Shown here: positions 21,071 to 25,251 of the stretch, piece after piece
Numbering within the stretch: the stretch's first letter is position 1
Layout of the letters: every line of letters begins with the position of its first letter
Assembly (NCBI RefSeq): GCF_035299005.1
Contig: NZ_DATGXL010000005.1
Location: 5,756 to 69,755 of the forward strand
Direction of reading: 5' to 3'
Source of the DNA: Flavobacterium sp.
GTDB taxonomy: Bacteria > Bacteroidota > Bacteroidia > Flavobacteriales > Flavobacteriaceae
Length of the DNA: 64,000 nucleotides
The notes under the pieces: model-generated
Seen by the model: only the letters and a program-made list of their open reading frames with translations
Database searches by the model: none
Told to the model about the DNA's origin: nothing
Position numbers and translations under genes: made by a program

Positions 21071-22321
21071 TTATAGTTTAAAGGCAGTTTTTACTTTGTC
21101 TACAAAATCTAATTTTTCCCATGTGAACAATTCAACTGTTAATGTTTTTGTCTCGCCTCCAGGAGCAGAAAATGTTTTTGTTACTGTCTCAGGGGTTCTT
21201 CCCATGTGTCCGTAAGCAGCCGTTTCGCTGTAAATCGGATTTCTTAATTTTAAACGTTGTTCAATAAAGTACGGACGCATATCAAAAATGCTTTCTACTA
21301 CTTTACTGATTTCACCATCTGTTAAGTTCACTTTTGCAGTTCCATAAGTATTTACGTTGATTGATGTTGGTTCAGCAACACCAATTGCATAAGATACTTG
21401 TACTAAAATTTCATCAGCAACACCAGCTGCAACTAAATTTTTAGCAATATGACGTGTAGCATAAGCAGCAGAACGGTCTACTTTAGATGGGTCTTTTCCT
21501 GAGAATGCACCACCACCGTGAGCACCTTTTCCACCGTAAGTATCTACGATAATTTTTCTTCCTGTTAAACCAGTATCTCCGTGAGGTCCTCCAATTACGA
21601 ATTTTCCTGTTGGGTTAATGTGGTATTTAATCGCATCATTAAATAAATGAGCGTATTGAGGATTTTTAGCAATCACTCTTGGAATCAAAATTTCTATAAT
21701 ATCTTTTTTGATTTTCGCTAACATTGTTGGTTCGTCAGCAAAGTCATCATGTTGTGTAGAAACTACAATGGCATCAATACGAACTGGTTTGTTGTCATCG
21801 GAATATTCTAAAGTAACCTGAGATTTTGCATCCGGACGTAAGTAAGTGATTTCTTTGTTCTCTCTTCTTAAATCAGCTAAATCTTGTAATAACTGATGAG
21901 ATAATTTTAAAGCTAACGGCATGAACTCAGCAGTTTCATTTGTGGCATAACCAAACATCATCCCTTGGTCACCAGCACCTTGTTCTTCTTTGCTTGCTCT
22001 GTCAACTCCTTGATTAATATCTGCAGATTGCTCATGAATTGCAGATAAAACTCCACAAGAATTTGCTTCAAACATGTATTCGCTTTTCGTGTAACCAATT
22101 TTCTTGATTACATCTCTTGCGATAGTTTGTACATCTAAATAAGTGTTTGATTTTACTTCTCCAGCTAAAATTACCTGACCTGTAGTAACTAATGTTTCAC
22201 AAGCTACTTTTGACTCAGGGTCAAATGCTAAAAAGTTATCAATTAATGCATCTGAAATTTGATCCGCAACTTTGTCAGGATGCCCTTCACTCACTGATTC
22301 TGACGTAAATAAATAAGCCAT
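21071..22321 (-). CDS. metK: S-adenosylmethionine synthetase
   Basis: [51 protein letters not shown]. Confidence 0.97.
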
Positions 22322-22387
22322 AATTAAATTTTATTATAAATTAAGTGAGAAAAAATATGATTGCAAATAGCGTAAAGGAGTAGGGAA

Positions 22388-22440
22388 TACTGCTTTAGCA
22401 TTTTTTTAATGAGGTCGCAATCAGTTCAAATTTTTCCTCT
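22388..22440 (-). promoter_or_regulatory. SAM-II riboswitch aptamer upstream of metK
   Basis: Minus-strand GAGG-aaaaa-UUUGA-ACUG-AUUGC-GA-CCUC-linker-GCUAAAG-CAGU: P1 GAGG/CCUC, P2 ACUG/CAGU and AUUGC/GCUAA, matching the SAM-II pseudoknot. Confidence 0.8.
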
Positions 22441-22453
22441 TTGTTTTAGGGTG

Positions 22454-22461
22454 CAAATGTA
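22454..22461 (-). promoter_or_regulatory. -7 promoter element for metK
   Basis: TACATTTG on the minus strand just upstream of the aptamer. Confidence 0.7.
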
Positions 22462-22606
22462 TGAAATGAAATTGAATTCCAAATAGTTGTTTACTTATTT
22501 TTTTTAAAAATGTACTTTATCGGAATTTTTGTATGCTTTATCGAAAATATGACTTGTAATTGCTTGTTATTCATATATTTATGTTGAATTTTTAAAACAT
22601 ATTGAT

Positions 22607-23494
22607 ATGGTTAAAAAACTACTTTCTTTTAGCTTTTTGTTAGTATCGCTAACATTTCAAGCGCAAAATTTAATTAGCGAAGGTTTTGATACTTATGCTA
22701 ATTTAGCGACTTCTGGTTGGACATCAACTAATCAAAGTACTGTTATTGGAACTAACCCAGATTGGTTTCAAGGGAATCCTGTAGCTAGTGGAGGCCCTTT
22801 TGACTCCTATGTTGGGGCTACTAATTCTTATGTTGCATGTAATTATAATAGTACTGCTGGAGCCAATACGATTAGTAATTGGTTAATGACTCCTGTGGTT
22901 AGTCTTGTTAATGGAGATGTTATCACTTTTTATACAAGAACTGTCACTTCACCTGCATATGCAGATAGGTTACAATTAAGAATTAGTACTAATGGAGCGG
23001 CTTCAGCTAACCCAGTTGGTGCAACAGGAGTTGGTGATTATACCACTTTAGCTTTAGATGTAAATCCATCACTAGTTGCTTCAAGTTATCCTAATGCATG
23101 GACTCTGTATAGTTATACGGTTTCTGGTTTGCCAACAGCTACTAATTGTAAAATTGCATTTAGATATTTTGTTACAAATGGAGGTCCTTCTGGAGCTAAT
23201 TCAGATTATATTGGAGTTGATTCATTTTCTGTAGATAGACCGTTAAGCTCTGATTCGTTTTTTAAAAATAATTTTTCACTATATCCTAATCCTGTTAATA
23301 ATGTGCTAAATATTTCTATAAAAAATGAATTGTCCATTACTAAATTGACAATTACTGATATAAATGGAAGAATCGTGATTTCAGAATCTTCAGTAATTAA
23401 TTCTTTAAATGTTTCAGATTTATCATCGGGTATATATTTAGTATCTATTGAAACGAATGAAGGAAAAGGGACTGCTAAATTTGTAAAAAATTAA
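22607..23494 (+). CDS. T9SS type-A cargo protein with choice-of-anchor J (cleaved-adhesin-like) domain
   Basis: Signal peptide; TISNWLMTP, ADRLQLRIST, YIGVDSF; CTD FSLYPNPV...GIYLVSI...KFVKN. Confidence 0.85.
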   Translation: MVKKLLSFSFLLVSLTFQAQNLISEGFDTYANLATSGWTSTNQSTVIGTNPDWFQGNPVASGGPFDSYVGATNSYVACNYNSTAGANTISNWLMTPVVSLVNGDVITFYTRTVTSPAYADRLQLRISTNGAASANPVGATGVGDYTTLALDVNPSLVASSYPNAWTLYSYTVSGLPTATNCKIAFRYFVTNGGPSGANSDYIGVDSFSVDRPLSSDSFFKNNFSLYPNPVNNVLNISIKNELSITKLTITDINGRIVISESSVINSLNVSDLSSGIYLVSIETNEGKGTAKFVKN

Positions 23495-23514
23495 AAGATA
23501 TTTTACGTAATTTA

Positions 23515-23549
23515 AAAGAAAAAAGAGGCTTTTGCTTCTTTTTTCTTTT
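23515..23549 (+). terminator. Intrinsic terminator
   Basis: aaagaaaaaagaggc-tttt-gcttcttttttcttt. Confidence 0.75.
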
Positions 23550-23668
23550 ATAATAGATTTTATTTTTGTTATTTATTGTTTTATATGAATAAAAATCTAT
23601 AAAATTGTTTTAAAATAACAAAATTTAGAAAAATAATCTATTTATTTTTTTATTTTAGAAAATAAATC

Positions 23669-23676
23669 TAATTTTG
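23669..23676 (+). promoter_or_regulatory. -7 promoter element for the metY leader
   Basis: TAATTTTG 25 nt upstream of the leader ATG. Confidence 0.65.
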
Positions 23677-23701
23677 CTCCATCAAATTAAAAGAAATAAA
23701 A

Positions 23702-23776
23702 ATGAACTTTACAATTTGCTATATCTGTATGACAATGTGGAATAATCCGCAGAGGTATTGTATTGCATATTTTTAA
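23702..23776 (+). CDS. Cys/Met-rich attenuator leader peptide (24 aa)
   Basis: MNFTICYICMTMWNNPQRYCIAYF; contains gcagaggt, complementary to the downstream terminator stem. Confidence 0.75.
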   Translation: MNFTICYICMTMWNNPQRYCIAYF

Positions 23777-23797
23777 AGAAACTTAAATAATCAATAT

Positions 23798-23826
23798 AAC
23801 CTCTGTCTAAAGCAGAGGTTTTTTAT
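23798..23826 (+). terminator. Attenuator terminator of the metY operon leader
   Basis: aacctctg-tctaaag-cagaggtt followed by T4. Confidence 0.85.
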
Positions 23827-23844
23827 TTCTAATAACACAACAGT

Positions 23845-23895
23845 ATGAAAATAGCAATTTACAATCCAAGACGATGTTGTCGAATGTGTAGCTGA
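23845..23895 (+). CDS. Second Cys-rich uORF (16 aa)
   Basis: MKIAIYNPRRCCRMCS, between the attenuator and metY. Confidence 0.5.
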   Translation: MKIAIYNPRRCCRMCS

Positions 23896-23958
23896 ATCAA
23901 ACTCAGTAAAATCAAAAAAATACATTTAAAAACACAATAACATCAAAAATAAAATATC

Positions 23959-25251
23959 ATGAGCACAAATAAATTTGCAACAAACGCATTACACGCAGGA
24001 CACGACATAACTAAAAATGGAGGAACAAGAGCCGTTCCAATTTACCAAACTACTTCCTACGTGTTCAATAACTCAGACCACGCTGCCAATCTTTTTGGTT
24101 TAGCCGAAGCTGGTTTTATTTATACAAGATTAAATAATCCAACAAACGATATCTTAGAAAAACGTTTAGCTAAATTAGAAGGCGGAATCGGAGCTGTCGT
24201 AACCGCTTCAGGAACTGCTGCTATTTCAACTGCTTTATTAACATTATTAAAAGCGGGCGACCATATAGTAGCTTCTAACAGTTTATATGGCGGAACATAT
24301 AATTTATTAAATGTGACTTTGCCAAGATTAGGCATCACCACAACATTTGTTGATCCATCAAATCCAGAAAATTTCTTAAATGCAGCTCAAGAAAATACCA
24401 GAGTGTTCTTCGCCGAAAGTTTAGGAAATCCAAAATTAGATGTACTCGATTTAAAAGCCATTTCAAAAGCCGCACAAACCTACAAAGTGCCTTTTATTGT
24501 GGATAACACAGTGGCAACACCCTTTTTGCTAAACCCAATCGAACACGGAGCTAACATCGTCATTCATTCATTAACGAAATACATCGGTGGAAACGGAACT
24601 TCGCTTGGAGGTGTTATCATTGATGCAGGAAATTTTGACTGGAGCAACGGAAAATTCCCAGAATTCACAGAACCTTCTGCAGGTTATCACGGATTGAAAT
24701 ATTATGAAGTATTAGGTGCAGCTTCGTTCATAGCAAAAGTTAGAATCGAAGGTTTACGCGATTTAGGTGCTGCTTTGAGTCCATTTAATGCATTTCAAAT
24801 TATTCAAGGATTAGAAACATTGGCTATCCGAATCAAAAAGCATAGTGAAAATGCTTTGGAATTAGCGAAATGGTTGCAAAAACGTTCAGAAGTGGCTTGG
24901 GTAAATTATCCAGGATTAATTTCTTCAAAATATTATGATTTAGCCCAACAATATTTACCAGAAGGACAAAGTGGTATCGTAACTTTTGGATTAAAAGGCG
25001 GTTATGAAGCCGCTAAAAAAGTAGCTGATGAGACTCAATTTTTCTCATTATTAGCGAATATTGGTGATACAAAATCATTAATCATTCATCCTGCAAGTAC
25101 TACGCACCAACAATTGTCAGAAGAACAACAAATTACAACTGGAGTAACGAAAGATTTAATACGTTTATCAGTTGGATTAGAAGATATTGAAGACTTGAAA
25201 ACCGATTTACAAAGTGTTTTCGAAAAATTGCCAGTTCAAAATTTAGTTTAG
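23959..25251 (+). CDS. metY: O-acetylhomoserine aminocarboxypropyltransferase/cysteine synthase (OAH/OAS sulfhydrylase)
   Basis: IYTRLNNPT, HSLTKYIGG PLP lysine, LANIGDTKSLIIHPASTTHQQL, IRLSVGLE. Confidence 0.92.
   Translation: MSTNKFATNALHAGHDITKNGGTRAVPIYQTTSYVFNNSDHAANLFGLAEAGFIYTRLNNPTNDILEKRLAKLEGGIGAVVTASGTAAISTALLTLLKAGDHIVASNSLYGGTYNLLNVTLPRLGITTTFVDPSNPENFLNAAQENTRVFFAESLGNPKLDVLDLKAISKAAQTYKVPFIVDNTVATPFLLNPIEHGANIVIHSLTKYIGGNGTSLGGVIIDAGNFDWSNGKFPEFTEPSAGYHGLKYYEVLGAASFIAKVRIEGLRDLGAALSPFNAFQIIQGLETLAIRIKKHSENALELAKWLQKRSEVAWVNYPGLISSKYYDLAQQYLPEGQSGIVTFGLKGGYEAAKKVADETQFFSLLANIGDTKSLIIHPASTTHQQLSEEQQITTGVTKDLIRLSVGLEDIEDLKTDLQSVFEKLPVQNLV

Follow-up and report, generated by a model that had tools for sequence, protein, structure and literature searches.

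A truncated Cys/Met leader frame upstream of metY in a Flavobacterium clade: a candidate terminator-less remnant of a second attenuator

The window, by which we mean the whole 64,000-nucleotide stretch of Flavobacterium sp. DNA that was analysed, carries metY, the gene for O-acetylhomoserine sulfhydrylase and the first gene of a regulated operon; downstream of it come metX and then an aspartokinase/homoserine dehydrogenase gene. The leader that precedes metY holds a putative promoter, an attenuator with its own leader peptide, and a short Cys-rich open reading frame that we named uORF2. The features run in the following order, all on the plus strand:

23669..23676, +, putative promoter -7 box TAATTTTG of the metY leader transcript, proposed from its match to the consensus
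23702..23776, +, leader 1 ORF (MNFTICYICMTMWNNPQRYCIAYF), the first Met/Cys leader peptide, conserved across the genus
23749..23760, +, antiterminator strand of attenuator 1 (GCAGAGGTATTG), predicted from the sequence to pair with 23793-23805
23798..23828, +, terminator T1, a 9-bp stem with a 5-nt loop (stem-loop 23798-23820) followed by a T-run
23845..23895, +, uORF2, MKIAIYNPRRCCRMCS-stop, a probable truncated descendant of leader 2 (from sequence, clade conservation and start context)
23866..23889, +, invariant core of uORF2, CCAAGACGATGTTGTCGAATGTGT (PRRCCRMC), with 0/24 variable columns in 13 species
23896..23958, +, spacer between uORF2 and metY, A-rich, G-poor, fast-evolving and without a terminator
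23959..25251, +, metY

The putative -7 box fits the Bacteroidota consensus TAnnTTTG, and reads TAATTTTG or TAAATTTG in those members of the clade described below whose aligned stretch extends that far. Within the same clade, the CAGAGG of the attenuator 1 antiterminator strand is invariant, and T1 has a mean pairwise divergence of 4%. Leader 1 of the window and of one relative (L105) has fewer Met codons than that of the sister loci L001-L007 (MNFTICYICMTMW versus MNFTMCNMCMMMW) and is two codons longer. A short RNA covering the homologous leader 1, Rfp20, was detected upstream of metY in F. psychrophilum, and short RNAs before metY are mentioned, without interpretation, in the supplementary material of that transcriptome paper (PMC9723704). 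On the opposite strand, an Rfam scan places a long-loop SAM-II riboswitch before metK (22385-22445, minus strand; 65 bits, E = 8e-12), and the methionine cluster therefore combines riboswitch with leader-peptide control.

uORF2 is an ATG-to-TGA frame at 23845-23895 of the plus strand that encodes MKIAIYNPRRCCRMCS in 16 codons (ATG AAA ATA GCA ATT TAC AAT CCA AGA CGA TGT TGT CGA ATG TGT AGC TGA). Its ATG lies 24 nt past the T1 stem and roughly 17-20 nt past the T1 T-run, while the ATG of metY (23959) follows 63 nt downstream of its stop codon. Three Cys codons and one Met codon fall within the final six codons, the base at -3 is an A, and G+C amounts to 14/30 across the last ten codons versus 11/63 in the downstream spacer. 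An earlier note on this DNA had given the same frame, the same distance to metY, the A at -3 and the same Cys and Met count, all of which the sequence bears out, as it does the remark that the codons are GC-richer than their surroundings. Short frames with such an ending are rare, in that at least three Cys in the last six codons occur in only 40 of the 25,042 short ATG-started ORFs (10-40 codons) of the genome (0.16%). The start context ranks at the 88th percentile among 1,462 unambiguous gene starts of the genome, beats that of the leader 1 start, and scores higher than every one of 5,000 random ATGs sampled. The note had also proposed a search for a conserved CCxMC uORF ahead of metY orthologs; the frame is present in all 15 species of the clade. 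Because Cys-rich ends are this uncommon, the start context is strong and the frame is kept in every one of these species, uORF2 is unlikely to have arisen by chance.

The regions upstream of metY were compared at 80 species-level loci, comprising 72 from outside the clade and 8 from within it. All 72 non-clade Flavobacterium loci possess a complete second attenuator between the T1 site and metY, consisting of a Met/Cys-rich leader 2, an antiterminator strand and a terminator, T2. Leader 2 is 19-45 codons long (for example MNVIAKNMMMTCMMMRTMCCIGICYYQKRKT and MKTIAKRNMMCCEMMQMCIPICCCQK), and T2 follows the motif CCYTTTGG...CCRAARGG with a U-run. In an alignment of 59 loci, T2 is 99.6% paired, with compensatory changes at 4 pairs. 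The antiterminator helix, formed between the last codons of leader 2 (TTACCAAAAG) and the T2 5' arm, is paired in 90.6% of cells, versus 33-67% when the partner is slid. Because the T2 pairing is conserved and the antiterminator helix outperforms the slid controls, attenuator 2 is a real leader-peptide switch. Leader 1 and T1 also lie within 1 kb of metY in 52 of the 72 non-clade loci. In the other 20, a relaxed motif search found no T1-type terminator within 1 kb of metY, with leader 2 and T2 present (examples are L060, L061, L063, L074, L077 and L079), although some of these may be motif misses; of the two attenuators, the second seems to be more nearly universal. The earlier reading of a second uORF with Met/Cys codons within a two-tier control of metY is upheld at the level of the genus, where two leader-peptide attenuators stand in tandem. 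No published account of Met/Cys leaders in Bacteroidota, whether tandem or single, came up in a literature search.

Two further peculiarities of leader architecture were observed among the non-clade loci. In an F. johnsoniae-like group (L034, L043, L047, L049, L060, L061, L063, L065-L077), T2 ends 260-320 nt before metY, versus 40-100 nt elsewhere, and the long spacer (region about -320 to -1 from metY) may hold a further element. In L010 and L012, short GC-rich palindromes (e.g., GCCCCCTAACCCCCGAAGGGGG), which look like small repeated palindromic elements, are inserted twice, once between T1 and leader 2 and once downstream of T2.

The window, from a Flavobacterium of the cheniae/cucumis/BAL38 group, belongs to a clade that departs from this arrangement. 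Its fifteen species (the window, L001-L007, L045 and six further genomes) lack both T2 and its antiterminator strand and carry the 16-codon uORF2 instead; T2 is missing from 8 of 8 clade loci in the 80-locus set, and from the further clade loci as well. In a tree of metY, all 15 loci without T2 group on a single branch (SH-aLRT 93) nested among lineages with both attenuators, such that a single change is needed. The uORF2 core was found in 10 of 401 sampled genomes of the genus, and a sequence-independent search of the same 401 genomes for a T1 arm 115-145 nt from the metY start returned the same 10 core-bearing genomes, together with three unrelated matches that look like chance. Since the spacing search recovered these same 10, no sampled genome with the short spacing has lost uORF2.

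The spacers within the clade preserve a trace of how the arrangement arose. One form, type B, found in sister species, aligns with the post-T2 spacer of three outgroup loci (L014, L010 and L012) with z = 8-15 and at the same distance to the metY ATG; the alignment begins where the T2 U-tail ends, just past the uORF2 stop. That T2 loss is monophyletic and that the type-B spacer is collinear with the outgroup post-T2 spacer makes a single deletion of about 110 nt the simplest history, one whose bounds would lie just past the Cys/Met run of leader 2 and at the end of T2. It is strongly supported that such a deletion in the clade ancestor took the distal part of leader 2, the CCAAAAG antiterminator strand and T2, and joined a 16-codon frame ending CCRMCS-stop directly to the old post-T2 spacer. 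The type-A spacer of the window has diverged further than type B. The two types (type A in the window, L001, L004, L005, L007, L104, L105 and L110; type B in L002, L003, L006, L111 and L113) are very different and are not distributed cleanly along the metY tree, type B being the one that matches the outgroup post-T2 spacer, with CTTAATACT repeats; this pattern suggests spacer replacement or recombination while uORF2 stayed fixed.

The descent of uORF2 itself from leader 2 is suggested on weaker grounds, namely position, collinearity, composition, a shared start and the placement of the best local matches. uORF2 is the first ORF between T1 and metY, is rich in Met and Cys, and begins MK/MN..I/V-A, as leader 2 does. 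Its start (ACAGTATGAAAA; ATGAA..ATAGCAA) finds its best local match in the start of leader 2, and its Cys-Cys/Met-Cys run finds its best local match in the Met/Cys run of leader 2; in pairwise nucleotide comparisons between uORF2 and leader 2, none is significant alone (z < 2). Compared with the ancestral leader 2 run, uORF2 keeps just three Cys and one Met, with Met codons apparently replaced by Arg. The layout that the earlier note had found nonstandard, two sensing uORFs on either side of one terminator, is accordingly not a separate design; it is a tandem attenuator minus T2 and its antiterminator strand. The description of a two-tier sulfur sensor holds for the genus and applies here in part, the terminator of the second tier being gone.

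What the deletion left behind has been tightly conserved. Divergence was computed over the 13 species of the main subclade, with the haoranii subclade compared separately. Mean pairwise divergence reaches 28.5% at four-fold sites of metY and 31% in each of the spacers that flank uORF2, versus 2.1% in uORF2 overall and 0% in its core. Counted as variable columns, the core shows 0/24, the spacers 60/88 and the metY four-fold sites 97/139 (Fisher p ~1e-10); uORF2 as a whole has 4/51, with 68-80% of columns variable in both flanks on the same tree. Between the main and haoranii subclades, whose metY proteins are 84% identical, the core differs by 4% (one synonymous change, CCA to CCG) compared with 56% at four-fold sites. 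The ATG is invariant, the sole indel is 6 nt long and in frame, and the stop always falls 1-3 codons after the core. Outside the core, the main subclade has two synonymous changes (GCA/GCC and TAC/TAT) and two non-synonymous ones (A4E and S16I), and the ends of the peptide vary by subclade (MKIAIYN versus MKMYL at the start, S-stop versus CLG-stop at the end). Because the core is frozen while spacers and four-fold sites have diverged, with ATG and frame kept, uORF2 is under strong purifying selection, and it probably still has some function.

Even the synonymous sites of the core are invariant. In metY of the same species, synonymous variation is seen in 50% of conserved Arg columns, 62% of conserved Pro columns and 56-71% of two-fold C/T columns. 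The core further retains two CGA codons, a minor Arg codon that makes up 11.7% of Arg codons. This pattern argues that part of the constraint is nucleotide- or codon-level, beyond the peptide alone.

Inspection of the surrounding RNA revealed no structure with which uORF2 might act as its ancestors do. There is no second terminator after uORF2, the sole plus-strand terminator-like site in 23400-24100 being T1, which lies upstream; the spacer at 23896-23958 contains no stem followed by a T-run; and the antiterminator strand that relatives use (TTACCAAAAG with the T2 5' arm) is absent at the uORF2 end. Pairing of the core with the downstream spacer does not exceed dinucleotide shuffles (0.08-0.86 at least as stable), and no partner is common to the three spacer haplotypes. 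Pairing with the metY 5' coding region lies inside the range of random 45-mers (0.05-0.48), and the core pairs with the RNA of leader 1 or T1, be it in cis or as a trans-acting sRNA, more weakly than shuffled cores do. As a repeated operator or sRNA target the core was likewise rejected, since a search of both genomic strands that allowed as many as 5 mismatches over its 24 nt gave no second copy. An antisense sigma-70-like promoter running through it was rejected as well, because its spacing is not the same in the two subclades (16 versus 12). An Rfam E-value scan of 22300-24100 returned only the metK SAM-II element and a sub-threshold chance match to OmrA-B over T1. The idea that other sulfur genes share such uORFs in a "Cys ribulon" was also considered, and a genome-wide short-ORF scan gave no other convincing case. 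In the predicted minimum-free-energy structure the metY start is unpaired. Because no duplex was found over this start, translational attenuation of the duplex type has no key element here, and the translational coupling to metY that the earlier note had entertained is unlikely given the 63-nt separation and the lack of an occluding RNA structure.

These data bear on several accounts of what uORF2 does. The best explanation, to which we give about an even chance, is that it is the surviving 5' part of the second attenuator, translated and selected, and that it would act as a hungry-codon sensor that gates Rho or coupling. uORF2 might instead be useful without sensing anything: its translation would keep ribosomes on the long read-through leader regardless of Cys or Met supply, guarding against Rho or RNases or holding the A-rich metY initiation region open. 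The good start context and the conserved ATG and frame fit such a role, as does the finding that no alternative structure depends on where a ribosome stops; however, the frozen part is the Cys/Met-codon block rather than the start or the length, and mere translation would tolerate almost any codons, so that we regard this account as unlikely. Rather more doubtful is that the 24-nt core works at the nucleotide level, for instance as a site bound by a protein or sRNA or as an RNase or pause site, with the open frame as inherited baggage. Its invariant synonymous sites, set against the variable Arg and Pro columns of metY, and the twice-retained CGA speak for it. Yet a significant pairing partner was found neither in the spacer nor in the metY 5' end or upstream leader, the lack of a second genomic copy argues against a regulon operator, no Rfam family matches, and the ATG, the in-frame indel and the nearby stop have all been kept.

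That uORF2 is a functionless relic of leader 2 in the course of decay is quite improbable. Its origin by deletion, the disappearance of its partner structures and its fewer regulatory codons than those of its ancestors are what a relic would show, but decay does not account for a core with no variable column in 24, and a frame with 4 in 51, between flanks that vary at 68-80% of columns on the same tree, nor for the retention of uORF2 in 10 of 10 T2-less genomes of the genus sample. The least probable account, in our estimate, is a 16-residue Cys-rich peptide that acts in trans, for example in a thiol- or metal-binding role or as a regulatory micropeptide. In its favour are the conserved CCxxC motif and the precedent of the leader peptide peTrpL, described as acting in trans (PMC7298713); against this, the subclades have different N- and C-terminal residues, only transcripts that read through the attenuator would yield the peptide, and frozen synonymous sites are not expected under selection on a peptide only. 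The thiol or metal peptide that the earlier note had offered thus finds no support.

Returning to the hungry-codon sensor, conservation, the kept frame and the start context support translation of uORF2 on transcripts that read through T1. Under starvation, the ribosome on leader 1 would stall and polymerase would pass T1 uncoupled, leaving roughly 200 nt of RNA from the stalled ribosome to metY. A shortage of Cys-tRNA or Met-tRNA would make a ribosome park on the Cys and Met codons at the end of uORF2, where it would most likely shield the long untranslated leader and keep Rho off the polymerase until metY is translated. With Cys and Met plentiful, the uORF2 ribosome would finish and leave, exposing transcripts that have leaked past T1 to Rho or decay. 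uORF2 and Rho would in this way replace the lost T2 as second tier, with the right regulatory sign. A model of translational unmasking, by comparison, would have no helix to work on, because no occluding structure exists.

Several features of the genome are compatible with gating by Rho. The genome has a rho gene (L114; G000 contig C6, 84070-84291), which lies within an open frame of 601 aa; as E. coli Rho has about 420 aa, the longer frame probably includes a large extra region. The spacer is A-rich and G-poor, and there is one tRNA-Cys gene. On the other side, the C>G skew of the spacer is modest, ranking no higher than the top 2-18% of upstream regions, and YC dimers are scarce in type-B spacers, which gives no positive sign of a rut site. 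The rho gene, the spacer composition, the single tRNA-Cys and the precedents of tnaC and toiL/topAI discussed below may all be accommodated by the model. The frozen synonymous sites and the two CGA codons hint at a nucleotide or codon constraint beyond simple hungry-codon sensing, and we leave room for codon-specific or nascent-peptide arrest, or for an RNA-binding factor, as an added mechanism. We advance only tentatively the more specific proposal that the second tier of the clade gave up its intrinsic terminator for a mechanism that needs none, in which a ribosome parked on the frozen RRCCRMC codons would serve as a roadblock or gate for Rho, or would undergo codon- or peptide-specific arrest, possibly helped by CGA or the nascent peptide.

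Compared with leader 2 and T2 of other Flavobacterium species, uORF2 occupies the same locus behind the same promoter and first attenuator, has the same start and keeps the Cys-Cys...Met-Cys block, whereas the CCAAAAG strand and T2 are gone from the clade, the ORF has been cut to 16 codons and most Met codons have been lost. Like trpL, hisL, pheL, thrL and ilvL, it is a short ORF with a usable start that precedes a biosynthetic operon and abounds in end-product codons. In these classical attenuators, the signal is read via ribosome stalling. Unlike them, uORF2 is followed by no intrinsic terminator or alternative hairpins. It lacks the terminator and antiterminator that define a classical attenuator, and it lacks what defines a duplex-based translational attenuator. 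We would therefore file it as a terminator-less variant of the leader-peptide sensor, with predicted activity.

tnaC and mgtL/mgtA exemplify leader-peptide control that depends on Rho, and in toiL/topAI, too, stalling on a uORF controls Rho termination (PMC12121999). As in these systems, a stalled ribosome near the uORF2 end is proposed to decide Rho termination before the structural gene; in contrast to them, the signal would be a charged tRNA rather than a ligand or antibiotic, and the rut site is hypothetical. Two uORFs that read different signals in one leader are known from the tandem attenuators of mgtCBR (PMC3641672). Polycysteine short ORFs of mycobacteria (Ms5788A; Canestrari et al., 10.1101/834739) control sulfur-metabolism genes without an intrinsic terminator, and two consecutive Cys codons are enough for Cys-responsive control there; these uORFs are leaderless and act by disrupting a duplex that hides the downstream Shine-Dalgarno sequence (10.1101/834739). 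uORF2 resembles Ms5788A in being a Cys-codon uORF before a sulfur-metabolism gene with no intrinsic terminator, but differs in being internal to its leader and in that no duplex hiding a Shine-Dalgarno sequence was found. Bacteroidota are largely without Shine-Dalgarno use. More generally, in contrast to the ermCL/Ms5788A type, no duplex hides initiation here, as the metY start is unpaired and duplex energies do not stand out from those of shuffled or random controls.

Leader-peptide attenuation is a textbook mechanism, and the metY leader of this clade amounts to a natural deletion experiment upon it, in which a second switch lost its terminator and antiterminator and its sensing codons stayed frozen while neutral sites diverged by 56%. 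Activity of the remaining stump would mean that a ribosome stalled on a uORF can exert control with no RNA switch at all. Were this true, it would point to control by Rho or coupling in a phylum whose rules of translation and termination are poorly known, and would provide a case from nature in which one locus has traded its attenuation mechanism for a different one, showing attenuators in the course of changing mechanism. Unannotated 16-codon frames of this kind are of practical importance wherever the methionine and cysteine metabolism of Flavobacteria is to be annotated or engineered.
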